A stretch of 64,000 nt of DNA. Origin: an uncultured Alphaproteobacteria bacterium. Its GTDB lineage: Bacteria; Pseudomonadota; Alphaproteobacteria; Methylaequorales; Methylaequoraceae. Below, one piece after another: positions 25,548-59,052 of the stretch. The notes beneath the pieces are model-generated. The model did no database searches. It had not been told where the DNA came from and worked only from the letters and a program-made list of their open reading frames with translations. The position numbers were made by a program, and so were the translations under genes. The stretch covers positions 110,318-174,317 of the forward strand of contig CACEXK010000003.1 of the NCBI GenBank assembly GCA_902563505.1, written 5' to 3'. Each line of letters opens with the position of its first letter. Position 1 is the stretch's first letter.

Positions 25548-26558
25548 ATGAAAATTATAAATTTAGATTCTGATTATAAAAAAGATTACTACTCAGATTT
25601 TGCGTCATGGTTGCAGGATGATTTAAACGCGGTAAACAAGATTATTTTGGACAGTCTATCCAATAGCTCAAAGCTCATATCAGATTTATCTAGTCATATA
25701 ATTAGTTCTGGAGGGAAAAGAATTAGACCACTTTTAACCTTAGCTTCTGCAAAATTGTGCGGATACTCCGGCTCAAGACATATAAATTTAGCATCTGTTA
25801 TAGAATTCATCCATACTGCGACACTTCTACACGATGATGTTGTTGATAATAGTAAAAAAAGAAGAGGAAAAGATACAGCAAATTATATTTGGGGGAATAA
25901 GTCAAGCATTCTTGTAGGAGACTTTTTATTGAGTAAAGCATTCAAACTTTTGACCAAAGACGGTTCTTTAAAATGTATAGAAATAATATCAAAAACATCA
26001 GAAAAAATATCCTTAGGAGAGGTCAAACAACTCATGTCTGTAAAAAATCTAGAAACAAGTGAATCTGATTATCTTGAAATCATTGATTTTAAAACAGCAG
26101 AATTGTTTTCAGCAGCTTGTCAAATAAGTTGTGAAATTAGCGAAATTGAGGACAAAAAAAAAAAATCATTAAGAGAGTTTGGAAAATTTCTTGGAATAGC
26201 CTTTCAGATTATAGATGATACTATTGATTATTTTTCTAGCGAAGAAAATTCAGGAAAAGAAATCGGAAATGACTTTAAAGAAGGGAAAATGTCCTTACCT
26301 TTAATACTTTCTTATAAAAGAAGTGACAGAAGAGAGAGAACATACCTAGAATATATTTTAAAAAAAGGGAGAATAATAAATGATGACTTTCTATGGGCCC
26401 AACAATTAATGAAAAAATATAATATAGAAGAAGATTGTATGAGCAAAGCCAAACATTTCTCCATAATGGCAAAAGATAGTTTAGGTACTTTTCAAAATTC
26501 TTTTGAAAAAGAAAAGATTCTTAATCTCACAGATTTTTTAATGTTTAGAAAGAGCTAA
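25548..26558 (+). CDS. ispB: Polyprenyl diphosphate synthase (octaprenyl-diphosphate synthase-like)
   Basis: First DDxxD motif LLHDDVVD and second motif IIDDTID. Confidence 0.85.
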   Translation: MKIINLDSDYKKDYYSDFASWLQDDLNAVNKIILDSLSNSSKLISDLSSHIISSGGKRIRPLLTLASAKLCGYSGSRHINLASVIEFIHTATLLHDDVVDNSKKRRGKDTANYIWGNKSSILVGDFLLSKAFKLLTKDGSLKCIEIISKTSEKISLGEVKQLMSVKNLETSESDYLEIIDFKTAELFSAACQISCEISEIEDKKKKSLREFGKFLGIAFQIIDDTIDYFSSEENSGKEIGNDFKEGKMSLPLILSYKRSDRRERTYLEYILKKGRIINDDFLWAQQLMKKYNIEEDCMSKAKHFSIMAKDSLGTFQNSFEKEKILNLTDFLMFRKS

Positions 26559-26736
26559 AATGGAATATTTTTTGCACAGAGTTCCTTATTATGAAACCAA
26601 AAATTGTAAGTACAGACGAATACCTGAAAATAAAATTTATTGAGTTTTTAACAAAAAACTATTTGCTGATTTTTTTCTTTTTTATAATTTTATTATTTTT
26701 TATTTAAAAAAAAAAAAAATTTATTAACTTATCCTT

Positions 26737-28068
26737 GTGGATGAATTAAATAAATTTTCAAAGAGATTTAAAAGATATGCAGATTTAGGGACTTCTGCAG
26801 GAACTGTTGCTCTAAATTTTATTGGAACAAAGGTTTTCAATAAAAAACATAAAGAGAATGCTGAAGAATTAACCAAGGTTCTTGGTAATTTGAAAGGTCC
26901 CATTATGAAAATTGCTCAATTACTTTCAACGGTTCCAGATTTACTGCCACAAGAATATATATCAGAACTGACTAAACTTCAATCAAGTGCCCCACCTATG
27001 GGATGGAATTTTGTTAAAAGACGAATGAAAAGCGAGCTTGGAAGTAATTGGGAAAAAGAATTTATTTTTTTTGAAAAAGAACCTTTTGCTGCAGCCTCAC
27101 TTGGCCAAGTCCATATGGCAAAATTTAAGAACCAAAACATTGTTTGTAAACTACAATATCCAGATATGCTCTCAATTGTGGAAGCTGACCTAAATCAGTT
27201 GAAACTAATCTTTTCAATATACAAAAAAATTGATTCCACAATTGATACCTCAGAAATTCAAAAAGAAATTTCCTTAAGAGTACGCGAAGAATTAGATTAT
27301 AAAAGAGAAAAAAATAATATGGACCTTTTTACCTCAATTTTTTCTAAGTCCAAAAATATTAAAATACCAAAGGCTTATGATGAAATTTGTACTGATAGAC
27401 TTTTATGTATGAGTTACTTAAAAGGCAAAAAACTTCTAAATTTCAAAAAAAGATCAAACTCAGAAAGGAAAACACTAGCATTGAATATGTTTAATGCATG
27501 GTATTATCCTTTTTATAAATTTGGAATTATTCATGGAGATCCTCATTTAGGAAATTATTCTGCAAATGATAATCTAGAAATAAATTTATTAGACTTTGGG
27601 TGTATAAGAATTTTCAAGCCTTCTTTTGTTAAAGGAGTTATTAATTTGTACTTTGCAATTATGAATAATAATGAAGAGCTTGCTGTCCACGCATATGAAA
27701 GCTGGGGGTTTGAAAACATTAATAAAGAATTAATTAATATACTAAACATCTGGGCTAAATTTTTGTACTCACCATTACTTGAAGATAAAGTAAGGAAAAT
27801 GCAAGAAACAAATTCAACAGCATATGGTGCTGAGGCAGCTACAAAGGTACACAAAGAATTAAAAAAAATTGGGGGAGTAAAGCCACCAAAAGAGTTTGTT
27901 TTTATGGATAGAGCTGCAATAGGCCTAGGGTCAGTTTTCCTTCACCTAGATGCAGAATTGAATTGGTACAAAGTTTTTAATGAATTAATAGATAATTTTA
28001 AAGAGAAAGAATTATTAAAAAAGCAACAAAATGTACTAAAAAAATCTAAATTGGTAAAATTTCTTTAA
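26737..28068 (+). CDS. ubiB: ABC1/UbiB-family atypical kinase
   Basis: AAASLGQVH ... HGDPHLGN motifs of the UbiB/ADCK family. The frame requires a GTG start. Confidence 0.8.
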   Translation: MDELNKFSKRFKRYADLGTSAGTVALNFIGTKVFNKKHKENAEELTKVLGNLKGPIMKIAQLLSTVPDLLPQEYISELTKLQSSAPPMGWNFVKRRMKSELGSNWEKEFIFFEKEPFAAASLGQVHMAKFKNQNIVCKLQYPDMLSIVEADLNQLKLIFSIYKKIDSTIDTSEIQKEISLRVREELDYKREKNNMDLFTSIFSKSKNIKIPKAYDEICTDRLLCMSYLKGKKLLNFKKRSNSERKTLALNMFNAWYYPFYKFGIIHGDPHLGNYSANDNLEINLLDFGCIRIFKPSFVKGVINLYFAIMNNNEELAVHAYESWGFENINKELINILNIWAKFLYSPLLEDKVRKMQETNSTAYGAEAATKVHKELKKIGGVKPPKEFVFMDRAAIGLGSVFLHLDAELNWYKVFNELIDNFKEKELLKKQQNVLKKSKLVKFL

Positions 28069-28630
28069 ATTTTCTTAAGAATTTCTCTGCCAATGATAAC
28101 AATCTGTCCAATTCAGACATTGTCTTTGACAAGTCCCTACTTGAATCATTTAACCAAACATTAAAACAATAGGAGTAAATCAAAAACAAAATATTTTTTT
28201 TAAAAACATCTAATATTGATTTATCGTATCCTCTGGCGACTTCCAGATAAAAATCAAGGGTATTAAAAATATTTTTTGAAATTTGGGTTAGTAATATTGG
28301 TTTATCTTTGGTACTTCTAATTATCATCTTTAATGAGTTCTTGTAAATCTGCATTTCCTCAAACCTCAACATTATCAACTCAAACAAATTATCTTTGATA
28401 GTAGATGAATTGATATCCTGAATTGATAAATTCAATTCAACTTTATGATCTATCATTTTTGAAAATTTTTTTAATAATATTGTTTTGGTTGAAAAAAAAA
28501 AATTTACTTTTTCTAATGGTATTTTTTCATCCTTCGAAAACTTTTCAATATTAAAATCATCCCAACCAAATTTTTCAATTTTTTTGAATGCATTATTAAT
28601 TAATTTATGTTCAGTTTCTAAAGAATTCAT
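28046..28630 (-). CDS. Hypothetical helical protein, possibly TetR-fold or COQ9-like. It sits between ubiB and apt.
   Basis: 194 aa with no strong motifs. Only the neighbourhood (ispB-ubiB) suggests a ubiquinone-related role. Confidence 0.3.
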   Translation of the reverse strand: MNSLETEHKLINNAFKKIEKFGWDDFNIEKFSKDEKIPLEKVNFFFSTKTILLKKFSKMIDHKVELNLSIQDINSSTIKDNLFELIMLRFEEMQIYKNSLKMIIRSTKDKPILLTQISKNIFNTLDFYLEVARGYDKSILDVFKKNILFLIYSYCFNVWLNDSSRDLSKTMSELDRLLSLAEKFLRKFKEILPI

Positions 28631-29305: not shown

Positions 29306-30016
29306 ATGACTAGAGCGCATAAATTATTTCTTAAATGGCTGCTACAATTCAGTATGATTTTCTTTTTCATTTTCTTTGTTTATGATCAAGGACTAATATT
29401 TAAAATTTTATCCTCAGACAAGAGTTATATTACAAGTTTGATTATTATTTCTTTTATAGTTATCACAGGTCACTGCGCGTTTTATACATTTTTAATTTCC
29501 GATGAACTCAATAAGGCACATATTATCAAAAAAAGTCTTTTGCAGGAAAATGTGAAACTGAAAATAATTGAAGATAATCTTATTTTAACTTCTAAAGGCG
29601 AGGTTTCATCAGGAATTGTTTGTGACTATTTTAAAGATTTGATTGGTTTAAAAAAAAGTGGAGCTTCTTCACATGTTCAAATTTTAGATACATATTTAAA
29701 AAAAACAATTGGTTATTATGAGTTTGGGTGGTTTTTCTCTGACATTATGCTTAAGCTTGGATTGATAGGTACAGTAATTGGATTCATTATAATGCTGAGC
29801 TCTCTTTCTGATATCACAACCTTTGATGTGACTTTGCTGCAAGGTGTTTTAACAACCATGGGGAGCGGAATGGGCGTAGCCTTGTATACAACGCTTTCAG
29901 CATTGGTGACTGGAGTTTTAATTGCAGTACAATACTATAATTTAGAAAGTGGTTGTGAAGAGCTTTTTTCTGTTCTTAATCAGATTTCTGAAGTAAGTAT
30001 AGATAAAAGTATGTGA
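29306..30016 (+). CDS. MotA/TolQ/ExbB-family proton channel protein
   Basis: Three predicted TM segments. LGLIGTVIGFIIMLSSL followed by GVALYTTLSALVTGVLIAV matches the TM2/TM3 signature of the TolQ/ExbB family. Confidence 0.7.
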   Translation: MTRAHKLFLKWLLQFSMIFFFIFFVYDQGLIFKILSSDKSYITSLIIISFIVITGHCAFYTFLISDELNKAHIIKKSLLQENVKLKIIEDNLILTSKGEVSSGIVCDYFKDLIGLKKSGASSHVQILDTYLKKTIGYYEFGWFFSDIMLKLGLIGTVIGFIIMLSSLSDITTFDVTLLQGVLTTMGSGMGVALYTTLSALVTGVLIAVQYYNLESGCEELFSVLNQISEVSIDKSM

Positions 30017-30017
30017 T

Positions 30018-30614
30018 ATGTCCTACTCCGGAAGAAGACTACGCACAGACCCTTTCACAGATTTGCTTTTTAACATTCTTTTATCTTTTACATTGTTAAT
30101 GTTTTTGGCAATTATATTCATGAACCCTATTCCTAAGTCAGGAGTCATAAATCCAAAAGCTGAATACATAATCACAATAAGTTGGAAAGATAATAATCCA
30201 GATGATATTGATACATATGTTCAAAGCCCTACGGGGGACTTGGTTTGGTTCAGGGGTAAAGAAGCTGGTTTCGTTCATTTAGATAGAGATGATAGAGGAT
30301 TACTAAATGATACGATTGTTGTTAACGGTGAAAAAGTACAAAACCCTTTGAACCAAGAAGTTGTGACTCTTAGAGCTGTGGTTCCAGGAGAATATATTGT
30401 AAATATTCATTATTATGCAACGGTAACAAATCTTCCTGTTGATGTTAATGTTAAAGTTGAGAAAGTTAATCCGCAACTCGAAGTAATATATTATGGAACA
30501 ATAAATTTAGAAAAAAAAGGTGTAGAAAAAACTGCAACAAGATTTAATATTACACAAGATGGAGTTGTAAATGTCACAGGGAATTTATTTAAAAAATTAG
30601 TTCCAGAAAATTAG
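30018..30614 (+). CDS. ExbD/TolR-like single-pass protein with an enlarged (about 150 aa) beta-rich periplasmic domain
   Basis: N-terminus RRLRTDPFTDLLFNILLSFTLLMFLAIIFM resembles the ExbD/TolR cytoplasmic-TM region, including a TM Asp. Starts 2 nt after the MotA-like gene. Confidence 0.5.
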   Translation: MSYSGRRLRTDPFTDLLFNILLSFTLLMFLAIIFMNPIPKSGVINPKAEYIITISWKDNNPDDIDTYVQSPTGDLVWFRGKEAGFVHLDRDDRGLLNDTIVVNGEKVQNPLNQEVVTLRAVVPGEYIVNIHYYATVTNLPVDVNVKVEKVNPQLEVIYYGTINLEKKGVEKTATRFNITQDGVVNVTGNLFKKLVPEN

Positions 30615-30623
30615 GAGAGAAAA

Positions 30624-31145
30624 ATGAATGCTGAAATCTTTATTATAATAATTTGTTATGTCCTTATAGGTTTCCTATTAGTCCTGTTTAATTTAAGAAC
30701 TAATTTTAACTGGTTTATAAAGGCCACGATGATACTAGTTGTTACTTCTTTTTATCTGCTCACCTATAAATCTTTTTCAAATCTTGTTGGATGGCCATCA
30801 AACAATCCTCTCCCTGACAGATTCAGATTAGTTGCTGCACAGATATATGAACCTAACGCTCTAATTAACTCAGAGGGAGCAATATTTCTTTGGGTTACTG
30901 ATATGGATAACTTAGCAGGTTTGAGTACTCCTCGTTCACATTCAGTTCCCTACAATAAAGAAATTCACGAAAGCATATCAAAAGCTCTTGTAAATCTTAA
31001 GAATGGTATTCCTCAAATGGGAGAAAATTCCTCGGAAGAAAAAACTGGATTAATCTCAGCTATTATTAAGAAAGAAAAAATATCTAGCACAAGCTCTACA
31101 CTAAACTTTTTTGACATGCCTAATCAGCTTCTTCCTGAAAAGTAA
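30624..31145 (+). CDS. Membrane protein (2 predicted TM helices), unknown function
   Basis: 173 aa with two N-terminal hydrophobic stretches. Lies within the operon. Confidence 0.45.
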   Translation: MNAEIFIIIICYVLIGFLLVLFNLRTNFNWFIKATMILVVTSFYLLTYKSFSNLVGWPSNNPLPDRFRLVAAQIYEPNALINSEGAIFLWVTDMDNLAGLSTPRSHSVPYNKEIHESISKALVNLKNGIPQMGENSSEEKTGLISAIIKKEKISSTSSTLNFFDMPNQLLPEK

Positions 31146-31834
31146 TGAGACTATTTCTTCTATTTTTTTTATTACTATCCTGTTCTGAGGATTCATCAAC
31201 ATATTATCCATTGGATAAAATTAAATCCTGGTCGTACAGTGTTGAGATAATACCTGAGGTTGAAAAAAGAGTTTTGTACAAAAAAACAAATCTATCAATT
31301 GGGGGAAAAAAAATAAAAATTTCGGGAAAATCAAAATCTCTCTTTCCTGTAATCAGAGAAGATGGAACGACTTTTTTTTATGATATTACTGATAAAGGAA
31401 TATACAGAAATGGTGTTAAGTTTTTAAAAGATACAGAGATGAAAATTGAAAAGGAAAAAAGAATTGTTTTACCATATCCTCTTAAAAAAAATAAACAATG
31501 GGAAGTTGAGAGCAAAACATATCTTATTTTGAGAAGATATCCTTATTATGATTATAGAGCTACAACTGATTTTAGACTAAATTATAAAATACTATCCTTT
31601 AGTGAATCAGTTAATACACCACTTGGAAAGTTTCAAGAATGCTTATTAATCAGAGGAGTGGGTCAGGCCAAATTCATTGATAGCGAAATTGGATCAATAA
31701 ATATAAAAATTATTTCTGAGGAATGGTATTCAAAAAATGTTGGGTTAGTCAAAATGGTTAGAATAGAAGAAACAGACACAGACTTGTTTGGTACTACAAA
31801 GATGATTCAATTACTTGAGAATATTCAAAAATAA
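31145..31834 (+). CDS. Lipoprotein of unknown function (paralogue of 5051..5740)
   Basis: Lipobox FFLLLSCSE. TAATG overlap with the upstream gene. Paralogous to the lipoprotein at 5051. Confidence 0.6.
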   Translation: MRLFLLFFLLLSCSEDSSTYYPLDKIKSWSYSVEIIPEVEKRVLYKKTNLSIGGKKIKISGKSKSLFPVIREDGTTFFYDITDKGIYRNGVKFLKDTEMKIEKEKRIVLPYPLKKNKQWEVESKTYLILRRYPYYDYRATTDFRLNYKILSFSESVNTPLGKFQECLLIRGVGQAKFIDSEIGSINIKIISEEWYSKNVGLVKMVRIEETDTDLFGTTKMIQLLENIQK

Positions 31835-31846
31835 ATAAGTTATAAT

Positions 31847-32863
31847 ATGAAAATAATTCCAGCGGTTTCCTTTTTATTTTTTTCATTAATTTTATTATAC
31901 CTAGGAAAATTTCTACTTTTACCCCTATTTATAGCTGTATTTCTATATATTATTATTAAATCCTTATCCAAAGACCTCAGAAGTCTAAGTTTAAAGTTTA
32001 AAATTAATTTGAATAGAATTCTTTCAATAGTTTTGATTTTTCTTTTTGCTATATTTTTGTGTTATTTTTCATTCAAAATATTCAAAATTAATGTGAATAA
32101 GGTGATTTCAAATACTAGCTCGTATCAACAAAATTTAGAAAATATTACTAATTATTTATCTGAAACATTTATAAGTAAGATTTTATCTGCAAACCAAATT
32201 TTTGGAAAGATTGATTTTTTTAAAATCTTCACTGAGTTTTTGAATTTTTTAACTAACTTTGCTGGAAATTTTTCTTTAGTTTTAATTTATCTTATTTTCT
32301 TTGTTCTAGAAGAAAAGTTTTTTGAAAAAAAATTAAATGAAATACTGGATAACAAAAATAAGATGAAAGTTTTTGTAAAAATTAACGACGAAATTTATAA
32401 CTATTTTAGGATCAAGGTATTTACTAGCTTTTTTACAGGAACTTTTACTTTTATAATACTCTTTTTTCTGGGAAATGACTTATCCACTGTCTTTGGAATT
32501 TTTTCATTTTTTTTAAACTTCATTCCATATATTGGCTCACTATTGTCGATTTTACTTCCATCAATTTTTTCTTATGTTCAATTTTTAGACCCACTAAATG
32601 CATTTCTAACATTATTTCTTTTATTTTTTATCCAGTTATTTTTTGGTAATTTCGTTGAACCAAAAATAATGAGTAAAACACTAAATCTAAGTCCAGTAAT
32701 ATTAATGATTTTTTTCTCACTTATGGGGAAATTATGGGGGGTATCAGGCATGTTTTTGAGTGTACCAATTTTGGTTGTTTTACTTATTATTTTTAATAAT
32801 TTTAAGGAAACCAAGAAGATTGCAATCTTTTTATCTGAAAAAGGAATTAATAAAAACTCATAG
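31847..32863 (+). CDS. AI-2E family transporter (PerM/UPF0118 permease)
   Basis: 338 aa polytopic protein with the PerM-like C-terminal region GKLWGVSGMFLSVPI. Confidence 0.7.
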   Translation: MKIIPAVSFLFFSLILLYLGKFLLLPLFIAVFLYIIIKSLSKDLRSLSLKFKINLNRILSIVLIFLFAIFLCYFSFKIFKINVNKVISNTSSYQQNLENITNYLSETFISKILSANQIFGKIDFFKIFTEFLNFLTNFAGNFSLVLIYLIFFVLEEKFFEKKLNEILDNKNKMKVFVKINDEIYNYFRIKVFTSFFTGTFTFIILFFLGNDLSTVFGIFSFFLNFIPYIGSLLSILLPSIFSYVQFLDPLNAFLTLFLLFFIQLFFGNFVEPKIMSKTLNLSPVILMIFFSLMGKLWGVSGMFLSVPILVVLLIIFNNFKETKKIAIFLSEKGINKNS

Positions 32864-49284: not shown

Positions 49285-49399
49285 ATTTAATCAAACTTAA
49301 AATATCTTTTATATAAATAAATTTATAGGGTTTAATTTTTTTTTTTATTTAATATCATAAAAATGCTGTTTTACAGCTATGGCAATAAACGTTTGATTT

Positions 49400-49660
49400 G
49401 TGAACCGAGACGGACCCGGGGGCGGTACCCGGCGCCTCCACCAATAAATTAAGGGGGCGAAATAGGATCGACGTGCGTGGGAATTTTCAAAAACTTTGCC
49501 CGGAATGGTACCAACGTTATCGGACTAAAACTTATAAATGCCAACGATAATACAATGGCACTCGCTGCTTAATTTATTAAGTTAGCGCGGTTGTGAGATC
49601 ACCGGGCAACAGAAGTCTCATCGGCAAGGGCGGGCAATTGTTCGCCCTTGTTTGTTTTAA
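49400..49660 (+). ncRNA. ssrA: tmRNA (ssrA), circularly permuted two-piece type. The acceptor piece ends CCA at 49443 and the coding piece starts GGGGGCG at 49453.
   Basis: A GC-rich block in an AT-rich region. T-arm CCGGG-GGCGGTA-CCCGG, 3' acceptor strand CGCCUCC-A-CCA pairing with the downstream GGGGGCG, which gives a G3:U70 alanine identity pair. Tag reading frame 49540..49572 is GCC AAC GAT AAT ACA ATG GCA CTC GCT GCT TAA = ANDNTMALAA*. Terminator hairpin at 49626..49658. Confidence 0.8.
49626..49658 (+). terminator. Rho-independent terminator at the 3' end of the ssrA coding piece
   Basis: Stem AAGGGCG ... CGCCCTT with a 10-nt loop, followed by GTTTGTTTT. Confidence 0.6.
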
Positions 49661-50096
49661 GTAGACTCACAAAAGGTTTTAGAGGATTCACTCTTCAACA
49701 AATAAGGGAAAATGAAATAGGTTAAGTGTAACGCATTTTTTAAGAAACTCCATGTAATAAAGGAGTTCAGTTCATACTTTAAATATCTGTAAAATTTGAA
49801 GTGTAGTTTTTTCATATAAAAATGATTGCAAAAAACAGTAGATTAAACCTCAGGAAAAAAATTTCATCTACTAACTTTTCTTTTAAATATTTATTTCTAA
49901 TCATAATTTTTCCTGAAGGGTAAAAGTAATCTGAAAAACATGTTGAAATTTCAAATGCAAATGTTGCATCTTTTATTTTTGTTATTAATTTATTCGACCT
50001 TTGTGGATCAGACAATTTAATAAAAATAATTATAAAGTTGAAAATCTAATTCATTTTCCTGGGCATTAAGTGTTTTAATTAAATAAATTCATAAAT

Positions 50097-50864
50097 TTAA
50101 TGATTTTTTCTATAAATTCCTTTGATGGAGATAGAAAAATCTAAAAAAAATAAATTTGGTACTTTAATAACTTTAATTTTTTCAAGACTATTATCTAAAC
50201 ATTTCAAAATTTTGTCTGAGAAATTTGGGTGTTCCCAGCAAATTATTTTATCATAATCTAATCCAAGTTTTTTATAAACATGTCGTCTTGTAAAAAAAAA
50301 TCTTCCAAGTCCCCATGCTAAATGTCCCTCATTTGGAATTACAAAAATTAAGTATCCATCCTTTTTTAAAATTCTGTTTATTTGAACTACAAACTCCTCT
50401 AAATTCATTATATGTTCTAGTGAAAAAAAAGATAAAACATAATCATATGACCTGGAAGATATTTGACTCATATCTTTAACTTTATTTATTATAAACTTTT
50501 TAACCTTTATTTTTCGTTTATTTAATTTTTTTTCTGATATTTTTAAAAAATCTAAATTAGTGTCTATTAAATCAAAAGATTTTGGAGTTTTACTTTTCCA
50601 AAATTTTTCATGGTCAAGAAAACCTGGACCTATTTCTATTATATTTTTATTATGAAAGTTAATTAAAGAATTTTGAATAACCTTATATGCATTTAGTTTA
50701 ATTAATTTATCTATTAAACTTTTATCTCTATGCTCATAAGTTTTTGTTATATTATTAATCCAGGATAACCAATCTTGATCGTCTTTATCAAAATTATAAT
50801 AATATTTTCTTCTATCACCGAATAATTTTTTATATAAAAAATATGGCAAAAATTTTCTTATCAT
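50097..50864 (-). CDS. Class I SAM-dependent methyltransferase
   Basis: IIEIGPGF (motif I) and an acidic motif II region. 255 aa. Confidence 0.6.
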   Translation of the reverse strand: MIRKFLPYFLYKKLFGDRRKYYYNFDKDDQDWLSWINNITKTYEHRDKSLIDKLIKLNAYKVIQNSLINFHNKNIIEIGPGFLDHEKFWKSKTPKSFDLIDTNLDFLKISEKKLNKRKIKVKKFIINKVKDMSQISSRSYDYVLSFFSLEHIMNLEEFVVQINRILKKDGYLIFVIPNEGHLAWGLGRFFFTRRHVYKKLGLDYDKIICWEHPNFSDKILKCLDNSLEKIKVIKVPNLFFLDFSISIKGIYRKNH

Positions 50865-51307
50865 ATCAAATAAAATTTTTAAAAAGTTGTTTAAATTATA
50901 TATTTTTTTTTATTATAGCAAATTTTTTTTTTTTTATCTTCATAGGATGTTATGATTCTATTTTTTAGCTCATTATTGCCTAACCAATCATCAAAAGGTT
51001 CATCATTAATCCATTTTTCCTTTTTGTTTAAAAAAATTTCAATTGTTTCGGCTTTATATATTTTTTTTTCGAGCTGGCTTTCCATTTTCTAACTCTGTTT
51101 TGATGTTGCATTCAAGAATTATTTGATCAGAAAAAACAAAATGATGAAATAAAATAAAATAAAAAGAAAATAAAATATTTTTTCATTTACACCTTATATT
51201 AAATTTGCATTTCATTGAGAATTAAAATTGATACATTTTAAGATATCAAAAAATAAATTCTTTTACTATTCTGAAAATGTAGATTTCTTCTCTAAAAAAG
51301 TTTTTCT

Positions 51308-52144
51308 TTATTTCTTATAATTTGGATTTTTTTGATTTGATTTAGTAATTTTTGTCAGTTCAGAAAAATTCAAATTTTTTTCCTTAGGAAAAGCAAAAAT
51401 ATAAAACTTTCCAACTCTATCAAAATGATTTTCTGAATTAATAAAATAATTTTCTTCATTGAAAAATCTGTAGTCAAACCAGTATAAATCATAATTTTGC
51501 GTAAATAAGAAGTTATTTAATTCAAAAGGGTTTGTAGGGTTATTTTCACATATTATGATGGGTCTGAATTTTTTAATAAATTTCAAACCACCCTCTAATA
51601 TTTGCTTTTCAAGTAGCTCTGCTTCTAACTTAATTAAATTACATTTTTTAATATCTTCAAATAAATCTAAATTTTTTATCTGAACTTTAGTTTTATTACC
51701 TTTATTAATTTTTATAAATTCAGAATAATTATAATTTTCTCCCAAACCGAATCCGCCAAAATTACCAACTTCTGAATAATTTATTTCATCTACGAGTACT
51801 TCCGTTTGTATTTTACCCATACCTGCATTAAATACTTCGACATTTTTTATATCATTAAGTGCTAAATTTCCACATTGGAGGTAATAAAGCATTTTTTGTG
51901 GTTCAAAGGAAAATACTTTCCCCTCATATCCAATTTTTTTAGATATTGGAATTGTAAATAAGCCTACATGTGATCCAATATCAAAAACATAATCAGATTT
52001 ACTTATTAAAGATAAAATTTTATTTAGTAATTTTTCAGACCACTCGCCGTATTCTCTGATGCTAAGTCCCACAAATTCATCATAATTTAAGAACATAAAG
52101 TCACCATGCTTTGCATTAACAAAACCTACAGAATTATTTTTCAT
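51308..52144 (-). CDS. FkbM-family methyltransferase
   Basis: VFDIGSHVGLFTIP ... FSFEP, typical of the FkbM domain. Confidence 0.7.
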   Translation of the reverse strand: MKNNSVGFVNAKHGDFMFLNYDEFVGLSIREYGEWSEKLLNKILSLISKSDYVFDIGSHVGLFTIPISKKIGYEGKVFSFEPQKMLYYLQCGNLALNDIKNVEVFNAGMGKIQTEVLVDEINYSEVGNFGGFGLGENYNYSEFIKINKGNKTKVQIKNLDLFEDIKKCNLIKLEAELLEKQILEGGLKFIKKFRPIIICENNPTNPFELNNFLFTQNYDLYWFDYRFFNEENYFINSENHFDRVGKFYIFAFPKEKNLNFSELTKITKSNQKNPNYKK

Positions 52145-52472
52145 AAATGAACATCAGCAAAATTCATTCCATATTGTTAAAAAATAATTAAAAAAAAAGG
52201 GGATAGAAATCCCCTTTTCGTATTAAAGTAAATCAAATTAAAAAGATTATTTAACCTTTAGTCAAAGGTTGCTCCGATAAAAAGTTAAATACATTAAATT
52301 GAGTTAAATCTATAATACTAGACATCAGATCACCTCCTTAAAAAATAATTAATATTAATTTTAATATAGTGTGACATATTCAGATTCACAAGTTGAATGA
52401 AGGTATGGGAAAAAAATTCTAAAAATATTAAGTATTAATCATACAATTCTTCAATTTTTCTGCAAAAATTAT

Positions 52473-53567
52473 ATGATTAGAGTTATGAGTAGAAAATTAA
52501 ATGCTATTGATTTATTCGCAGGTGCTGGTGGTTTGTCATATGGATTGTCAGAAAGTGGGATTAAGGTTTTATTAGCTAATGAAATTGAGAATGACTTTTC
52601 TAAAACTTACATGCTAAATCATTCTAAAACGGAAATGCTTAACTGCGATATAAGTAAAATTGATTTTAAAAAAAAAATTCAAGACTTGGGTTGTCAAAAT
52701 ATTGATATTTTATGTGGAGGCCCACCTTGCCAAGGTTTTAGTACTGTTGGTAAAAAAGATCAAAGTGATAGGAGAAACTCACTCTTTTGGGAATTTCTTC
52801 GCGTAGTTAAAGAAACTAGTCCTAAAGTAATTTTATTTGAAAATGTCTCTGGCTTTAAAACTTTATATAAAGGTTTAGCTTTTTCAACTTTACTAAGTGA
52901 ATTAAAAATGATGGGATTCAAAACTTTTCATAATGTTTTAGATGCGTCTGACTTTGGCCTACCACAAAGAAGACTTAGAACTATAATTGTAGGTGTTATT
53001 TTTGATAAAGCCTTCCAATTTCCAAAGTTAACGCATTATAATTTAGATAATTTATTTGGGGAAAAAAAATTGACTTTGATGGATGCAATATCTGATTTAC
53101 CGAATCTTAAATCTGGAGAGTCAAAAGATTTTTACTCTACAAAACCAAATAACAATTTTCAAAAGAAAATGAGAGGAGATCTAGAGATTTTAACTGAACA
53201 CAATGCAACGAATTACGGAGAAAAAATGAAAAAAATTCTAAGTTTAATTCCAAAAAATGGTAGCGTGTTAAATTTACCTAAGGAATTAAGGCCAAAGAAA
53301 TATTTTAATAATGTATATGCTCGACTTGATGGTGAAAAAATTTGTCCAACTATAACAAGAAATTTTGGTACACCATCTTCATCAAGATGTATTCATCCTC
53401 ACCAAAATAGAGCATTGTCAACTAGAGAAGGAGCTAGAATACAAAGTTTTCCTGATAATTTTAGATTTTATGGAAGTAAGACAAGTAAAAATCTACAAAT
53501 TGGAAACGCAGTTCCTCCACTATTAGGAAAATTGCTTGGTAAAGAAATTAAAAAGTTATTTTCTTGA
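52473..53567 (+). CDS. dcm: DNA (cytosine-5)-methyltransferase (type II R-M modification subunit)
   Basis: C5-MTase motifs I DLFAGAGG, IV GGPPCQGFS, VI ENV, VIII QRRLRTIIVG and X GNAVPP. Confidence 0.9.
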   Translation: MIRVMSRKLNAIDLFAGAGGLSYGLSESGIKVLLANEIENDFSKTYMLNHSKTEMLNCDISKIDFKKKIQDLGCQNIDILCGGPPCQGFSTVGKKDQSDRRNSLFWEFLRVVKETSPKVILFENVSGFKTLYKGLAFSTLLSELKMMGFKTFHNVLDASDFGLPQRRLRTIIVGVIFDKAFQFPKLTHYNLDNLFGEKKLTLMDAISDLPNLKSGESKDFYSTKPNNNFQKKMRGDLEILTEHNATNYGEKMKKILSLIPKNGSVLNLPKELRPKKYFNNVYARLDGEKICPTITRNFGTPSSSRCIHPHQNRALSTREGARIQSFPDNFRFYGSKTSKNLQIGNAVPPLLGKLLGKEIKKLFS

Positions 53568-54146
53568 TTTTAAAATTGGCCTAAATACGAGCCCTTTATA
53601 TTCTTTAAATTCTATTTCTTGGCCCCAATTATTGCAATCAACGCACATTGGTACAATATTTCCTATTTCGTATGATTTACTCTTCAAAAGATGTCCTTTG
53701 TCATAGTGATTCATTTTTCGTCCACAAACAGCACATCCACGTTCTTTGAATTTTTCTAAAATTTTTTGCCAATCTTCATTTGTCAAATTATTTTCTCTCT
53801 TGATTGAATTTTTAGTCCAAACCGGATTAGGTTCTTCAATTGAATGTAAAGACATCTGATTATTTCTGAATTTCTTTTCATATATCCCTCTGGTAAATCT
53901 TTTATTTCCAGATTTTATATACCAACCTAAATCAGCTAAATGTCTAGCCTGCCTCTTATATTCAAAATTATTCTCACTGTGCCATCTTTCAATTTCATCC
54001 TGAGTCATTGGTTTGGGCATCTTTGCATATAGGCAAATCAATTCAATAAGTTTTTTCCCAGATGGAAAATCTACTCCTTCATTCCTGAGATTTGAATGCC
54101 ATTTAGTTCGTATTTTAATTTCTAAATCTTTTAAAATTCTATTCAT
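53556..54146 (-). CDS. HNH-motif endonuclease, candidate restriction enzyme partner of the C5-MTase
   Basis: CAVCGRK...H..GH...N..PMCVDCNN (CxxC...H...N...CxxC HNH core). Convergent with the MTase gene, with a 12-nt 3' overlap. Confidence 0.55.
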   Translation of the reverse strand: MNRILKDLEIKIRTKWHSNLRNEGVDFPSGKKLIELICLYAKMPKPMTQDEIERWHSENNFEYKRQARHLADLGWYIKSGNKRFTRGIYEKKFRNNQMSLHSIEEPNPVWTKNSIKRENNLTNEDWQKILEKFKERGCAVCGRKMNHYDKGHLLKSKSYEIGNIVPMCVDCNNWGQEIEFKEYKGLVFRPILKSRK

Positions 54147-54168
54147 TATGCAAAAGATAATATAAATT

Positions 54169-54453
54169 TTAGTAATTCATCCTTTTCTTTATTTCCTCGA
54201 CATATTCAGGAAAATAATCATTTATTTTCATTAATTTAAAAGATGCTAGTATTGAAGTGTTTGACTCATTATCTAGGAGAAACTCAAAACTTAAATACAA
54301 AAGTTTTTCCTTTGTAATTTTGCCATTCGTCAAATATTGATAAACTTCATCTGAAACATTTACAAGATGAGTCGTCACAGATTTTGAATTGATTGTAATA
54401 TGAAATTCATCATCTGAATTTTTCTTTATGTTTATTTTGTTATCAGCTACCAT
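54169..54453 (-). CDS. Hypothetical protein (94 aa)
   Basis: ORF only. No recognisable motifs. Confidence 0.3.
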   Translation of the reverse strand: MVADNKINIKKNSDDEFHITINSKSVTTHLVNVSDEVYQYLTNGKITKEKLLYLSFEFLLDNESNTSILASFKLMKINDYFPEYVEEIKKRMNY

Positions 54454-54571
54454 TACAAAAATAAATCAAAAATTTATCTTGAAAAAAAGAAAATGTATAT
54501 TACTTAAATTATGGAAGAAATTAAACTGACTATGTAAACTTACATAAATGTTATCATAGTCAGTTACCTGC

Positions 54572-54964
54572 TTAATTAAGTGGATCATCTCCCACCTCAT
54601 AATTTTTTAATTTACCCTCAATTAATTGAAAATCCTCCCCTTCATGAGTTGTTATAGTAACATATTGATTTGAAGTTTTAACATTGAATTGCTCGTTCAC
54701 AGCATTTATATATGTTTTAACAAGTTCCTCAATTTGCTCTTTAGACCTCCCTTTTCTAATATCAAGATTCATTAAGCAAATCAAATCACCTTTTTCCGCC
54801 CTACCTAAATTTATATTATTAATGTCATGTTCTCTCAGACTTATTGCAATATGAGAAGTTCCCGTTTTCATAATATAACTAAATTTCGATTTTACAAATT
54901 CGATAAACCTTATTCTTTGCTGATTTTTTAGTGTAAAATTTATATCAAACTGTAAATGAGGCAT
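54572..54964 (-). CDS. Hypothetical protein with a Met-Pro N-terminus, possibly tautomerase superfamily
   Basis: The product begins MPHLQFDINF. Pro1 after Met is the hallmark of 4-OT/CHMI/MIF tautomerases. 130 aa. Confidence 0.3.
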   Translation of the reverse strand: MPHLQFDINFTLKNQQRIRFIEFVKSKFSYIMKTGTSHIAISLREHDINNINLGRAEKGDLICLMNLDIRKGRSKEQIEELVKTYINAVNEQFNVKTSNQYVTITTHEGEDFQLIEGKLKNYEVGDDPLN

Positions 54965-55027
54965 AATATATGGGATAAACGGGTTAAAAAATTATTTTGA
55001 ATTATTTTACCACCGTTCTACCACAAT

Positions 55028-55849
55028 TCAATTAATTGTATAAAATAATTGTTGTCCTTTAACTCTAAAAGAAGAAATTAAATCTTTAGTTTTTCTTGAA
55101 TTTAACCAATTTACAAATTTACTTGTCTGAGACACCTTTGTGTCTGGACATTTATCGGGATTAATAGGAATCACACCATAGAAATTATATAAATTCGGCT
55201 CATTTTCAACTAATATTTTATGATCTCTTTTGTTGTTAAAGCTTACCCATGTTGATCTATCAGAAAGTATGTAAGCATTTTTATTTACAGCTATATTTAA
55301 TGAACCTCCCATACCTTGTCCAACAGAATAATACCAAGAATCTTCTCTTGGGTTCGGAACGAAATTAGTAAGTTCCCATAATTTTATCTCTTTTTTGTAA
55401 GTTCCACTTTCATCACCCCGAGAAATAAATCTAAACTTATTTTTTCTAATGATATTAAGTGAATCAACAATAGAATTTGATATACTAATTTTAGCAGGAT
55501 CATTACTAGGACCAATTAAAACAAAATCGTTGTACATAAATTCCTTTCTGAAAAGTCCAAAACCATCTTCAACAAACTTTTCCTCAGATTCTTTATGGTG
55601 AACTATAAGCAAATCACCATCACATCTCATGGAGTTTTTTATAGCTTGACCCGTTCCAACAGCTACCACTCGAACTTCAATATCATACTCATTTTTGAAG
55701 TTAGGTAAAATATAATCATATAAACCAGAGTCTCTTGTTGAAGTTGTAGATTGAAGAATAATAAAACTTTTGGATTTTGAAAAAGAATAATAATTTATAA
55801 ACAAAACTAAACTGAAAATAATTGAAATATATTTGGATATTGTTTTCAT
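55028..55849 (-). CDS. Periplasmic substrate-binding protein, tungstate/molybdate (TupA/WtpA-like PBP)
   Basis: Signal peptide, then ILQSTTSTRDSGLYDYILP, which resembles the TTSTxDSGLLD anion-binding motif of TupA-type binding proteins. No permease or ATPase gene is adjacent. Confidence 0.55.
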   Translation of the reverse strand: MKTISKYISIIFSLVLFINYYSFSKSKSFIILQSTTSTRDSGLYDYILPNFKNEYDIEVRVVAVGTGQAIKNSMRCDGDLLIVHHKESEEKFVEDGFGLFRKEFMYNDFVLIGPSNDPAKISISNSIVDSLNIIRKNKFRFISRGDESGTYKKEIKLWELTNFVPNPREDSWYYSVGQGMGGSLNIAVNKNAYILSDRSTWVSFNNKRDHKILVENEPNLYNFYGVIPINPDKCPDTKVSQTSKFVNWLNSRKTKDLISSFRVKGQQLFYTIN

Positions 55850-56008
55850 ATTAAAGAATAATAAATAATGTTCTAAATAATACTTATTCTATAAATTAGC
55901 AGCAATAAAGTTTTTTTATAAGAATCAAGACAAATGCCATAAACAAATTATTTGCATTTAAAAATCATTGATAATTTTTTTTAAAAACCAATATAACTTA
56001 TTAAGTTA

Positions 56009-56058
56009 TCCCACCCTAATTATTTTCCTTCATTTAATCCCAAAAATTAGGGTGGGTA
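56009..56058 (-). terminator. Perfect 12-bp inverted repeat (CCCACCCTAATT ... AATTAGGGTGGG), a hairpin immediately 3' of the 56060..56401 gene
   Basis: GC-rich stem that is unusual for this genome. There is no immediate U-tract, so it may be a terminator or an RNA stability element. Confidence 0.4.
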
Positions 56059-56059
56059 T

Positions 56060-56401
56060 CTAATGTAGACTATCAGAAAATTTAAATATTTTCTGTTCCT
56101 CTTTGGTTTTTTTGCAGATGGGGCACATTTTTGTTGCCAGTATCTGTGCTTTAATAAATAATTGGTCAGATTCTCTAAGTAATCTATTGAGTAGTTTCTT
56201 TGCAATTAATTTCTTTTCTGGAATCGACTTTGCTGATACCCAAAGTCTCTCAAATATTTGATTATATCTATAGTGCAGTTCTTTCTTTTTTTTAACTACA
56301 TCATCGATGATTTCAATTACGACATGGTCATAATTTTTTTCCTCATCAATTTCTTCAATTGAATCTGTTTCTTGACTAAATAAATCTATAAGTTTTCTCA
56401 T
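56060..56401 (-). CDS. Hypothetical protein (113 aa, acidic N-terminus, single C-terminal CxxC)
   Basis: ORF only. Confidence 0.3.
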   Translation of the reverse strand: MRKLIDLFSQETDSIEEIDEEKNYDHVVIEIIDDVVKKKKELHYRYNQIFERLWVSAKSIPEKKLIAKKLLNRLLRESDQLFIKAQILATKMCPICKKTKEEQKIFKFSDSLH

Positions 56402-56500
56402 TCTTAATTAAGTTATTATGTGATTGGACTTGTAAGAATTATTACTGGGGAGTGATATTCCTACAAGTCCTCTCAGCTTTTTTAGGACTTGAAAACCTTC

Positions 56501-58831
56501 CTAAAAACTTGCAATACCTTTAACCCATGCAGTTAGAGGTTTTCCCGCTCTTGCACCATCAGGATGTCTGGATGAAATATATTCTAGATCAGTTGCATTA
56601 TTTACTCCTGCAGTTATCGAGTAATTTTTGTTAATCTCATAACCAGCACGCAAATTCAGCAAGGTAGCTGAATCAATCTTTCCAGCTCTTGCATCAGGTG
56701 TTGATCCAGAAACTTCAGTATCAGTCTCCGCAGCAGTACCGTGTGTTTCAGAGTGGTGGGTTACATTTATTCCGAAAGTAAAAGGACCATATGCATAATC
56801 AATTCCACCAGAAAAAACATGCTCTGGAACATATGGGACATTATTACCATCTCGACCACCAGAGAAAATGGATTCAGAATCAGTTGAGGTTGAATCACCA
56901 TCTAAATTAGCATTTGTAAATGTGTAGTTTGCATAAAATGTTGTATCACCAGCAAAAGGCAAGAAATTTTCAGGTGAATAAGCGGTCATTAATTCAAAAC
57001 CCTTGGATACGATTTTACCTGCATTATCGGCATCACCACCTGTGTTCGAATTATCTAAAACCAAAACATTATCAAAGTCTGTTTTAAAACCAATAAATGA
57101 GGCCGAGAAGTTTTCATCAGCGTATCTAACGCCAAGCTCTTTCTGAACACTTTTTTCTGGTTGAATAGGTGTTCCATCATCTCTAGCTCCACTTGGAGAG
57201 GTAAAACCAAAACCTTTATAAACTGCACCATACCATTGCCAGTTTTCATCATGATTGTAAGTTAATCCACCGCCTGGAACAAATGCATAAGTTTTTTCTT
57301 CCAAGTTATTAGTGGTTCCCATTGTAGCAGCTCCACTTCTGTAATGCTGTTTTACATACTCAAATCGCGAGCCAAAGGATACAACAAAATTATTAATTGT
57401 AGCTGACTCTTCAAAGTAAGCCGCAGCTCCTTTTGTTTTTTGGTTTCTATCGGCATCAAAAGCATGTGAACTCGTTGTTAATGTCCCAGTATTTGCAGCC
57501 TGATTGTATGTATCAGTATATTGATCCCTGTTAATTGAATCATAATGAAACTTAAAACCAACTTTAAGGTCATGATCAATTCTTCTATTAAGAATATTAG
57601 TAGCAAAATCAAAATTAGTTTGGTTCATTACCCCGTAAGCATAATACTGTCTGTCGTTAGATTTATATCTCACAGTACCAGCTCTATCACCTCTATATAT
57701 TTCGATATCTGTTGTATTTCCGCCTCTAGCTGCTGTGTATGCTTTCGAAGAAATTGCTCTGATATTGGTGCCATTAACTCTATCTAACTTATACCAATCT
57801 CTATAAAACTGATTGTAATAAAAAGTAGTTGTATTCTTGATATCATCAGTAATCTCTGCATGAATCTTTGCGTAGTATGTTTTCGCTTCTGAGTTCATAT
57901 TGTCTAACTGACTGGCTACATACCTTTGAAAAGGGTCGTTATTAAAATCAGCAGTAGTTAAACCTGCATAACCCTCATAATAATCAAGACTATTATAAGC
58001 ACCTTTTAGCTCAAGAGTTACTTTGTTTCTTACAGGAAGCTGCCATAATAATTTTACCATTGGTGCAATCTGAGAAAGACCTCCCGCATCATCATCACCA
58101 TAATGATCTTGCGGACCTGCTCCATCTGCATCAACTGGACCAGTAAAATCTCTAAATCCGTCATTATCACGCCAGTATGCCTCCGCTAGAATAGCAATGG
58201 CACCATAGCGCCCAGTTATTCCATAATTTCCGTAAGCATGAGTTGAGATATCATTATGTGAGCCATACGATACACTTCCGTAGGCTCTTTGTCCGAAATC
58301 AATTGGTGTCGTTTGATAGTTTATAACACCACCGGTTGTATGTGGACCATACCTAAATTGCGCACTACCTTTTAAAATTTCAATCGAATTCATTTTTGCA
58401 GCTAATGGTGAATAATATGCATCTGGGGCTGAATAAGGGGCAGGGGCAATGTTGATACCATCTTCCAGCATAGTTACAGCTGCCGTACGTAAAGTGCTAA
58501 CCCCTCTCAAGCTAATGTTAGGAAAAATACCATAACCGTCTTCTTCACGAGAATAAACACCCGTTGAATTTCTTAAAATATCATTAATATTCTGAAAATT
58601 ATATTTTCTGATTTGTTCAGTTGGAATGTAATCACCAGAGCCGGGAAGTTCAAAATCCTGCTCTGGCGACTCATAAATGTTTACATCAGGAGCTACATAA
58701 GCGTAGTCCTGAGCATAAACATTGGCACTTAACATAAAGCAAAAAGTAAATGCTAACCTTGACATTTGACGAGCATATTTAGGTGCTAACCTTTCAGTCA
58801 TAACTGAACTAGTATAAATTTTTTTGCGCAT
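56501..58831 (-). CDS. TonB-dependent outer-membrane receptor
   Basis: Signal peptide (MSRLAFTFCFMLSANVYAQ), a plug domain with IEILKGSAQFRYGPHTTGGVINY, a long beta-barrel region and a C-terminal aromatic residue (…GIASF). Its GC content is visibly higher than the flanking DNA (roughly 40-47% by eye). Confidence 0.85.
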   Translation of the reverse strand: MRKKIYTSSVMTERLAPKYARQMSRLAFTFCFMLSANVYAQDYAYVAPDVNIYESPEQDFELPGSGDYIPTEQIRKYNFQNINDILRNSTGVYSREEDGYGIFPNISLRGVSTLRTAAVTMLEDGINIAPAPYSAPDAYYSPLAAKMNSIEILKGSAQFRYGPHTTGGVINYQTTPIDFGQRAYGSVSYGSHNDISTHAYGNYGITGRYGAIAILAEAYWRDNDGFRDFTGPVDADGAGPQDHYGDDDAGGLSQIAPMVKLLWQLPVRNKVTLELKGAYNSLDYYEGYAGLTTADFNNDPFQRYVASQLDNMNSEAKTYYAKIHAEITDDIKNTTTFYYNQFYRDWYKLDRVNGTNIRAISSKAYTAARGGNTTDIEIYRGDRAGTVRYKSNDRQYYAYGVMNQTNFDFATNILNRRIDHDLKVGFKFHYDSINRDQYTDTYNQAANTGTLTTSSHAFDADRNQKTKGAAAYFEESATINNFVVSFGSRFEYVKQHYRSGAATMGTTNNLEEKTYAFVPGGGLTYNHDENWQWYGAVYKGFGFTSPSGARDDGTPIQPEKSVQKELGVRYADENFSASFIGFKTDFDNVLVLDNSNTGGDADNAGKIVSKGFELMTAYSPENFLPFAGDTTFYANYTFTNANLDGDSTSTDSESIFSGGRDGNNVPYVPEHVFSGGIDYAYGPFTFGINVTHHSETHGTAAETDTEVSGSTPDARAGKIDSATLLNLRAGYEINKNYSITAGVNNATDLEYISSRHPDGARAGKPLTAWVKGIASF

Positions 58832-58870
58832 AATTTAAATTTCCAAAAAATCTTAATAAAGTAATCTTTA

Positions 58871-58962
58871 TTATGATAATAGTTATCATTATCGTTATTA
58901 ATAATAATGATTATCATTACCAAAACTTATTGTCAACAAGATAATGATAATTATTATCATTA
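58871..58962. promoter_or_regulatory. Three Fur-box-like operators in the divergent promoter region between the TonB-dependent receptor and the MBL-fold gene
   Basis: 58875-58893 GATAATAGTTATCATTATC, 58903-58921 AATAATGATTATCATTACC and 58940-58958 GATAATGATAATTATTATC, compared with the Fur consensus GATAATGATAATCATTATC. A minus-strand TTGACA -35 lies at 58931-58936 and its -10 region overlaps box 2. Confidence 0.7.
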
Positions 58963-59052
58963 GTTTTTTTTATCTTCTTAACTAATTTTTTTAATACTTT
59001 ATAAACTATCTATTAAACCTAAAATCAAAGACAAGAAACTATTCTATAGAAT

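Follow-up and report, generated by a model that had tools for sequence, protein, structure and literature searches.

A-B-C, a candidate three-subunit motor of the MotA/ExbB type in SAR11-like bacteria, gammaproteobacteria and phages

Three adjacent genes in a 64,000-nucleotide stretch of DNA from an uncultured alphaproteobacterium (contig CACEXK010000003.1 of assembly GCA_902563505.1, positions 110,318 to 174,317; hereafter the window) appear to encode an inner-membrane complex of three subunits that is self-contained and of the MotA/ExbB type. The products of these genes, g1, g2 and g3, are referred to here as the A, B and C subunits. Taking the solved Mot, Exb, Tol, Gld and Zor complexes as a guide (review PMC9389320), we propose that they form a proton-driven motor of the 5:2 type, with new B and C subunits and an output directed at the cell envelope, and we put the probability of this reading at roughly 55%. 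An earlier note, made on the same DNA, had described a stator-type machine with a new output built from five genes, g1 to g5. The kind of machine stands, while its extent contracts to g1-g2-g3. A limited literature search returned no description of this trio.

The A, B and C subunits

The likeness of g1 to TolQ and ExbB that the earlier note reported is borne out by a match to Pfam MotA_ExbB (PF01618) above the cutoff, confined to residues 151-215 (E 9e-8, 32.3 bits against a cutoff of 22.9), and the A neighbours in the fetched loci are all marked PF01618. The family alignment (A2) predicts four membrane helices and a cytoplasmic loop of ~80 residues, with the third and fourth helices (residues ~141-210) forming the channel hairpin and containing the motifs LKLGLxGTxxGF and GMxxALxTTLxxL. 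When aligned by hhalign with Escherichia coli TolQ, A covers the hairpin formed by the second and third transmembrane helices (TM2-TM3), and Thr156 and Thr196 fall on the two pore threonines (Table 1). Conservation was counted over 151 distinct A, 146 distinct B and 145 distinct C sequences; both threonines are invariant in all 151 A subunits, cellular and viral alike, as is Gln209. The g1 protein is a member of the MotA/ExbB family that retains both pore threonines. Weak PDB and NCBIfam matches are to PomA, MotA and MotP, the best of them, to PomA and MotA, lying over the same channel hairpin, and a profile comparison of A with MotA returned a low probability. The second helix also carries a His56-Cys57 pair (window 29471-29476), present in 74 and 72 of 78 cellular copies, respectively; in viral copies His56 is mostly replaced by Trp, Tyr or Phe. 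The pair is possibly a site for a metal or for redox chemistry that only the cellular systems have.

The B subunit consists of a single membrane helix (residues 12-35) and, in the AlphaFold2 model (mean predicted local distance difference test, pLDDT, 67.5), an all-beta domain of ~160 residues. The helix carries Asp15, which is Asp in 144 of the 146 B subunits and resembles in its position Asp25 of ExbD (PFIDVML). The N-terminus has a mean of 3.0 lysine and arginine residues, which suggests that it is cytoplasmic (N-in) and that the soluble domain is periplasmic. The helix Asp is at the position used by ExbD, TolR and MotB, and the predicted topology of B and C fits that of MotB, ExbD and TolR. 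P0122-type B subunits have the motif DPFTVMLFK instead of FTDLLFN, with the Asp on the same helical face. P0173, an apparent A-B fusion of 411 residues, most probably arises from read-through or a frameshift where genes overlap and was not used as evidence.

Five acidic residues of the B domain, Asp63, Asp65, Asp91, Asp92 and Glu114, are invariant in all 146 sequences, and Trp56, Gly94, Arg119 and Gly124 are invariant as well. The closest structural matches of the B model are Ca2+-binding beta-sandwiches, namely TerD, the collagen-binding domain of ColH and the jelly roll of Tk-SP, and we propose that the acidic cluster binds Ca2+. At the level of sequence the similarities are faint (PPC, DUF2135 and Tk-SP). 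The g2 protein matches no family in Pfam or NCBIfam, including the OmpA families that would indicate an OmpA-like peptidoglycan-binding domain; TerD (PF02342) gave no match for the head, and ExbD (PF02472) none for g2 at E <= 1. Matches to PPC (PF04151) were found in 11 of 102 B relatives, with a best E of 6e-4 and no gathering score shown to be reached. PDB sequence searches with g2, with g4 and with the profiles A5 and A8 gave only subthreshold matches, and a Foldseek comparison of the B model with viral structures (BFVD) nothing informative. The family itself is large: at 50% identity, an exhaustive search with its profile yields 2,081 clusters with E <= 1e-3, 441 of them with E <= 1e-30, and nearly all are ~200 residues long. 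Among the B relatives inspected, every source name is "hypothetical protein" except for a single automatic label, "YfaP (DUF2135 family)".

The C subunit has two membrane helices (residues 3-24 and 30-50) and a GWP motif. Its AlphaFold2 model (pLDDT 74.4) places after the helices a five-stranded domain with one helix, then a disordered linker and a final strand. The small domain that follows the helices is OB-like; since the loop between the helices is positively charged, this loop is predicted to be cytoplasmic and the soluble domain periplasmic. Gly56 is invariant among the C sequences, and Trp90, Pro103 and Tyr110 nearly so. The twelve C-terminal residues are strongly conserved: Phe162, Asp164, Pro166, Pro171 and Lys173 vary little or not at all in cellular copies and are retained in part in viral ones, a pattern that makes the peptide a candidate docking motif. 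No TonB_C or TolA match was found for C, and there is no Ser or His among its conserved residues. The earlier note had found no recognisable family for g3 or g4. This stands for g3, which has no match in Pfam, NCBIfam, PADLOC or PHROGs, and B and C alike reach the threshold of no family in these four collections; it does not stand for g4, a marginal member of DUF3108_like.

Conservation of the trio in bacteria and phages

One genome per GTDB species was scanned, which revealed a g2 relative in at least 485 genomes, and the best 80 loci were analysed. Wherever the contig allows, g1, g2 and g3 are adjacent and in the same order in all 80 of these loci, across SAR11-like bacteria, other alphaproteobacteria and gammaproteobacteria. 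The closest g2 records (85-94% identity) come from SAR11-type metagenome-assembled and single-amplified genomes labelled Pelagibacteraceae, Rickettsiales or Alphaproteobacteria; all of the bacterial hits are in genomes of these two kinds. Distant B relatives from other metagenomic lineages likewise have a MotA_ExbB gene on one side and a small C-like gene on the other. As A-B-C is kept everywhere while the neighbours vary, the core of the system is A-B-C, accompanied by lineage-specific accessories. The gene neighbourhood that was to be checked for conservation therefore extends, for these three genes, far beyond SAR11; for all five it is limited to SAR11-like genomes.

The g4 gene follows C in SAR11-like loci and in three loci of other alphaproteobacteria (L003, L040 and L041), and is not found there in gammaproteobacterial or viral loci; it is an accessory limited to alphaproteobacteria. 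Its match to DUF3108_like (PF21347) scores 27.4 bits and clears the cutoff of 27 only marginally; the family is also matched, at E <= 0.01, by 16 of 17 homologues. Nearly all homologues (36 of 39) carry a lipobox, mostly with Ser at position +2. The g4 family profile (A8) gave weak PDB matches to the structural-genomics lipoproteins 4fvs and 3fzx, and no PADLOC or PHROGs family was found for g4. The genes on either side, an adenine-phosphoribosyltransferase-like gene (apt) upstream of g1 and the AI-2E transporter gene downstream of g4, are syntenic only in SAR11-like loci, where the order apt-A-B-C-g4-perM-rodA is fixed, and these two genes are bystanders rather than parts of the conserved module.

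Outside SAR11 the accessories differ. In a set of 44 gammaproteobacterial loci and three from other alphaproteobacteria, a DUF302 protein is encoded upstream in 42 loci, with a lipobox in 24 of the 42, and a protein of ~500 residues downstream in 33, comprising a signal peptide, a VWA domain, a membrane helix and an FHA domain. No PADLOC model matches this gammaproteobacterial VWA-FHA protein. A link between the tail of C and its VWA domain through a metal ion-dependent adhesion site (MIDAS) was considered and dropped, as the VWA motif, DTSDP, is degenerate. The gammaproteobacterial trio adjoins the housekeeping genes tilS, accA and dnaE.

In all comparisons B ranks as the best-conserved subunit. 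SAR11 and gammaproteobacterial copies have a median identity of 64% in B, as against 34% in A and 36% in C, and within SAR11-like genomes g2 is 85-94% identical compared with 53-70% for apt. Cellular B proteins cluster closely, with 59-68% identity from SAR11 to gammaproteobacteria, and stand apart from the viral ones (~40%), a pattern that speaks for long-standing vertical inheritance under strong constraint.

Besides SAR11 and other marine Proteobacteria, phages carry the trio as well. A tblastn search of GenBank phages with g2 returned 29 records, all of them Rhizobium or Sinorhizobium phages, with B present in at least three genome types of about 60, 68 and 154 kb. Examples are RHph_N3_19 (A of 113 residues, B of 194, C of 154), RHph_I1_9 (gp146, gp147 and gp148 for A, B and C) and phage 16-3 (p038, p040 and p042); the A and C proteins of 16-3, which lie outside the training sets of the hidden Markov models (HMMs), were recovered with E 1.5e-6 and 1.4e-6. 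The phage trio is located among early and DNA-metabolism genes, and some phage A subunits, at 113-148 residues, are almost devoid of a cytoplasmic domain. Across the viral and metagenomic loci A is upstream of B in 88 of 91 and C downstream in 87 of 91. No conserved fourth gene was found in the viral loci, the most frequent candidates being a ClpS-like gene (15 of 78) and an upstream family of ~147 residues (14 of 78), so the trio stands alone there. Carriage by phages weighs against a purely housekeeping machine with a lipoprotein as its output.

A scan of IMG/VR added at least 182 contigs with B relatives. The isolated phages are firm evidence of phage carriage, and the IMG/VR contigs are putatively viral, some of them having Hsp70, SbmA/BacA and aldehyde dehydrogenase genes. 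Locus L091 (1-12672), classed as viral, combines the trio with ribosomal protein S21, AdoMet decarboxylase, SufBD, HSP20 and ClpS, as well as SbmA/BacA, NifU, cytochrome b and ClpP. L128 and L139 are IMG/VR contigs of 328 and 242 kb that carry the trio, the former together with genes for a full Hsp70, SbmA/BacA, aldehyde dehydrogenase and radical SAM proteins. Contigs of this type represent cellular DNA that was misclassified or else marine phages with a very rich gene content. Matches to Volactin (PF25216), an archaeal-type actin family, lie no more than a few kb from the trio on one giant viral contig (L089/L095, 7676-9683, on an IMG/VR contig of 527 kb) and in one alphaproteobacterial metagenome-assembled genome (L090, 37-1041). 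In both small rhizobiophage types a gene for a trypsin-like, probably periplasmic serine protease is found no more than 2-3 kb from the trio (L093, 2214-3113, which is p036 of 16-3; L092, 7234-7926, in RHph_N3_19).

The viral copies raise the question of whether the trio is at root a mobile, phage-linked conflict module, acting in superinfection exclusion or as a Zorya-like envelope-sensing defence or counter-defence, with the bacterial copies domesticated. The complex would still be of the MotA/ExbB type, and its output would be phage entry or abortive responses rather than housekeeping. The number of viral contigs and rhizobiophage records and the position of the phage copies among early genes are in keeping with this, and the only defence-related matches of g1 in PADLOC and NCBIfam are to ZorA, far below threshold (E 0.0036 and 14 bits; E 0.059 and 12.4 bits against a cutoff of 100). 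However, in SAR11-like genomes the trio keeps a single fixed core position and the cellular copies form a close clade of their own, both of which point to a long-established housekeeping role in cells; the gammaproteobacterial copies sit beside housekeeping genes, and no PADLOC model was found for B, C, g4 or the VWA-FHA protein. We consider a conflict module unlikely.

An alternative that keeps the complex and changes its action is a gated cation channel or sensor, in which the Ca2+-binding head of B gates the ion flux or reports periplasmic divalent cations, and the FHA domain of the VWA-FHA protein relays the signal to the cytoplasm in gammaproteobacteria. The invariant acidic cluster in a modelled TerD-like fold would suit such a device, as would the signalling-type layout of the VWA-FHA neighbour, which has its FHA domain in the cytoplasm and occurs in 33 of 44 gamma-type loci, and the short phage A subunits, which have hardly any cytoplasmic domain with which to push a rotor. 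Against this, all structurally characterised complexes of the MotA/ExbB family are, to our knowledge, 5:2 motors that couple ion flow to movement, the strictly kept third subunit with its periplasmic domain and terminal peptide resembles an output arm, and the Ca2+ site remains putative. A channel or sensor is accordingly improbable in our view, and the motor is the reading that we retain.

The locus and its neighbours

The five genes of the locus are tightly packed on the forward strand at the positions first reported (Table 1). The spacings given for them were 2, 9, -1 and 12 nucleotides; the last three are correct and the first is 1. Such spacing is normal in this genome, where 27 of the 44 same-strand gaps in the window are at most 12 nucleotides (median 7.5), so close packing carries no weight for grouping g1 to g5, and it is conservation across lineages that groups the genes. 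The window has a G+C content of ~29%.

Table 1. Positions of the trio, its key residues and the neighbouring features within the window
Feature	Position	Strand	Remarks
g1 (A subunit)	29306-30016	+	236 residues
Thr156 codon of A	29771..29773	+	aligns with TolQ Thr145 / ExbB Thr148 (hhalign)
Thr196 codon of A	29891..29893	+	aligns with TolQ Thr178 / ExbB Thr181 (hhalign)
g2 (B subunit)	30018-30614	+	198 residues
Asp15 codon of B	30060..30062	+	motif FTDLLFN, near the cytoplasmic end of the membrane helix
Acidic-cluster region of B (Asp63, Asp65, Asp91, Asp92, Glu114)	30204..30359	+	motifs PDDxD and HLDRDDxG; putative Ca2+ site
g3 (C subunit)	30624-31145	+	173 residues
C-terminal peptide of C	31107..31142	+	twelve residues, FFDMPNQLLPEK; strongly conserved; candidate docking motif
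g4 (DUF3108-like lipoprotein)	31145-31834	+	229 residues; lipobox LLSC, Cys13 at 31181-31183
g5 (AI-2E transporter)	31847-32863	+	338 residues
Polyprenyl synthase	25548-26558
UbiB/ABC1 kinase	26737-28068
194-residue protein	28046-28630	opposite	faint COQ9 match (E 0.023)
Two-piece alphaproteobacterial tmRNA gene	49327-49663	+	Rfam RF01849, 203 bits
C5 DNA methylase	52473-53567
TonB-dependent receptor	56501-58831	-

The apt gene (Pribosyltran) lies 3 nucleotides upstream of g1, and g5 is an AI-2E transporter by its match to PF01594 above the cutoff (140.5 bits, E 9e-41). Downstream of g5, in convergent orientation, are rodA and a PBP2-type transpeptidase gene. The AI-2E gene (forward strand) and rodA (reverse strand) overlap by 6 nucleotides at their stop-proximal ends (32858-32863), which leaves no space for a terminator between them. 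A promoter and terminator scan of this AT-rich window gave signals no higher than background. Because the only sizeable upstream spacer precedes apt, the genes from apt through g5 probably share one transcript. Together with the synteny of the five genes and apt in about 32 of 36 SAR11-like loci, the exceptions being contig ends, this probable shared transcript speaks for a single machine comprising all five genes, the AI-2E permease included. The absence of the AI-2E and apt genes from beside the trio in other alphaproteobacteria, in gammaproteobacteria and in viral loci speaks against it, as does the spacing of at most 12 nucleotides that is the rule in this genome, and we give a five-gene machine very little credence. 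Just upstream of the locus is a ubiquinone-related cluster (25548-28630) that contains the polyprenyl synthase, the UbiB/ABC1 kinase and the 194-residue protein.

No TonB- or TolA-like gene is adjacent to the trio, in agreement with the earlier note, and the TonB-dependent receptor that it placed near 56.5 kb, in an island of foreign appearance, is indeed present in a low-GC stretch (50000-59000; GC 0.22 at 50-52 kb) after the transfer-messenger RNA (tmRNA) gene. This stretch also carries methyltransferases and the C5 DNA methylase, and looks like a genomic island inserted at ssrA. The receptor allows the trio to be read as a divergent Ton-like energiser, in which C would be the TonB analogue powering this receptor or similar outer-membrane transporters, and no ExbB, ExbD or TonB gene is found near the receptor. 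This absence was seen within the window, though, and a true exbBD-tonB set could lie elsewhere in the genome; the island-like setting of the receptor contrasts with a trio that is conserved in all SAR11-like loci and in phages, and C, with its two helices, has no SHLS motif, proline-rich spacer or TonB_C domain. A Ton-like energiser is highly doubtful.

Proposed mechanism and relation to known motors

In the motor that we favour, five A subunits would surround a B dimer (A5B2), and protons passing by way of Asp15 of B and the ring of Thr156 and Thr196 of A would drive relative rotation. The head of B, as a Ca2+-binding beta-sandwich replacing the usual peptidoglycan-binding domain, would tie the axle to an invariant component of the envelope, most plausibly the cell wall, and such anchoring would account for B being the most conserved subunit. 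The helices of C may bind to the outside of the A ring, as those of TonB and TolA do, and C, by way of its OB-like domain and C-terminal peptide, would hand the movement on to partners that differ between lineages. Candidate partners are g4 (alphaproteobacteria) and the DUF302 and VWA-FHA proteins (gammaproteobacteria); phage copies would engage components of the host.

Several observations weigh against this proposal. The earlier note had called g2 ExbD/TolR-like; the transmembrane Asp and the beta-rich domain foreign to ExbD hold up, whereas the homology to ExbD does not. Comparison by hhalign of B with E. coli ExbD and TolR gave probabilities of 0.2% and 3%, respectively, and homology to ExbD, TolR or MotB is not significant. 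The part aligned with ExbD is limited to a motif of seven columns (DPFTDLL against TPFIDVM), so that homology to ExbD lacks statistical support and the apparent likeness is confined to a short helix motif; faint matches of the ExbD HMM to 3 of 102 B relatives (best E 0.005) count, for their part, in favour. In one B subfamily (P0122, P0138 and P0173; locus L085, 5987-6643) the helix Asp lies four residues further towards the N-terminus. The AlphaFold2 models of B and C are both of moderate confidence, and the most conserved loop of B (residues 77-102) is poorly modelled. C has neither the SHLS motif nor the proline-rich linker of TonB and TolA, and phage carriage is not accounted for by a role in envelope maintenance.

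With the Ton and Tol systems (ExbB-ExbD-TonB and TolQ-TolR-TolA) the trio shares the PF01618 A subunit and its pair of pore threonines, an N-in B helix with an Asp of the essential type (PFTDLLF here, PFIDVML there), and a third membrane-anchored subunit with a periplasmic domain, encoded by genes that are adjacent and partly overlapping. In contrast to these systems, A has four predicted helices in a MotA-like topology, the head of B is modelled as a TerD/PPC-like beta-sandwich of ~160 residues rather than an alpha/beta domain of ~80, and C combines two helices, an OB-like domain and a terminal peptide, lacking a TonB_C or TolA_C domain. The most conserved subunit is B and not A, and the module is found in phages too. 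The possibility that g1-g2 are simply the canonical TolQ-TolR or ExbB-ExbD of the organism, which the earlier note had named as its refutation, draws its sole support from the MotA_ExbB match of g1 and is refuted by domain content, given the missing ExbD match and the modelled beta-sandwich head of g2. Queries with E. coli TolQ, TolR, ExbB and ExbD against the window returned E > 0.2, no tolA, tolB, pal or tonB gene is adjacent, and Pelagibacter is reported to have a separate TolQRAB operon (bioRxiv 10.64898/2026.04.03.716430); canonical identity can be set aside as practically untenable.

The closest published concept is found in a 2025 survey (PMC12204202) of TolQ-like motors in Proteobacteria that are paired with non-ExbD vWA proteins bearing an Asp pore helix. 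The principle is the same, a ring of the MotA/ExbB type with a non-ExbD, Asp-helix partner that carries a different periplasmic head, yet the system is a different one: the surveyed motors have a vWA head, heterologous pairs and no third subunit, whereas the trio has a predicted beta-sandwich head and a dedicated C. The gammaproteobacterial VWA-FHA protein, unlike the vWA partners of the survey, is a separate accessory bearing a signal peptide.

SAR11 bacteria are non-flagellated. The four-helix topology of A is common to MotA-MotB and PomA-PomB, as is a B helix with an Asp near its cytoplasmic end. There is, however, no large cytoplasmic torque domain in the trio, as the A loop is ~80 residues long and nearly absent in the phage versions, and B is without the plug, linker or OmpA-like domain of MotB and PomB. 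Zorya (ZorA-ZorB) is likewise a complex of the MotA/ExbB type tied to phage biology, but the trio has no long ZorA tail, no peptidoglycan-binding domain of ZorB and no effector genes of the ZorC/D type, none of the PADLOC or NCBIfam Zorya models match g2, g3 or g4, and in SAR11 the trio occupies a core-genome position. TerD, one of the structural matches of the B head, is soluble and cytoplasmic, whereas the head is membrane-anchored and predicted to be periplasmic, reaching no Pfam threshold and with Ca2+ binding putative.

MotA/ExbB-type motors are, as far as we know, the only known route by which inner-membrane energy reaches the periplasm and outer membrane of Gram-negative bacteria, and we know of no new branch of these motors so far (Mot, Ton, Tol, Gld, Agl, Zorya) that did not reveal a new cell-envelope process. 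The trio is worth pursuing in this light: the B family is large, B and C are unannotated, and the genes are kept in a streamlined SAR11 genome beside rod-shape genes. Phages carry them too, among them Sinorhizobium phage 16-3, which is amenable to genetics, and the phage versions supply very small A subunits for structural work.

At somewhat short of even odds, we entertain the wider possibility that A-B-C represents a major, hitherto unrecognised branch of the MotA/ExbB 5:2 motors that has B and C subunit families of its own, with a Ca2+-binding beta-sandwich B axle and a two-helix, OB-fold C transducer, belonging to the core genome of the most abundant bacteria in the ocean and repeatedly captured by phages that would use it to rewire the envelope or energisation of the host during infection. 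If this is true, the phage A subunits of 113-148 residues, the smallest found here, would be close to a minimal motor, and the question becomes what a virus gains from a proton-driven envelope motor of its own.

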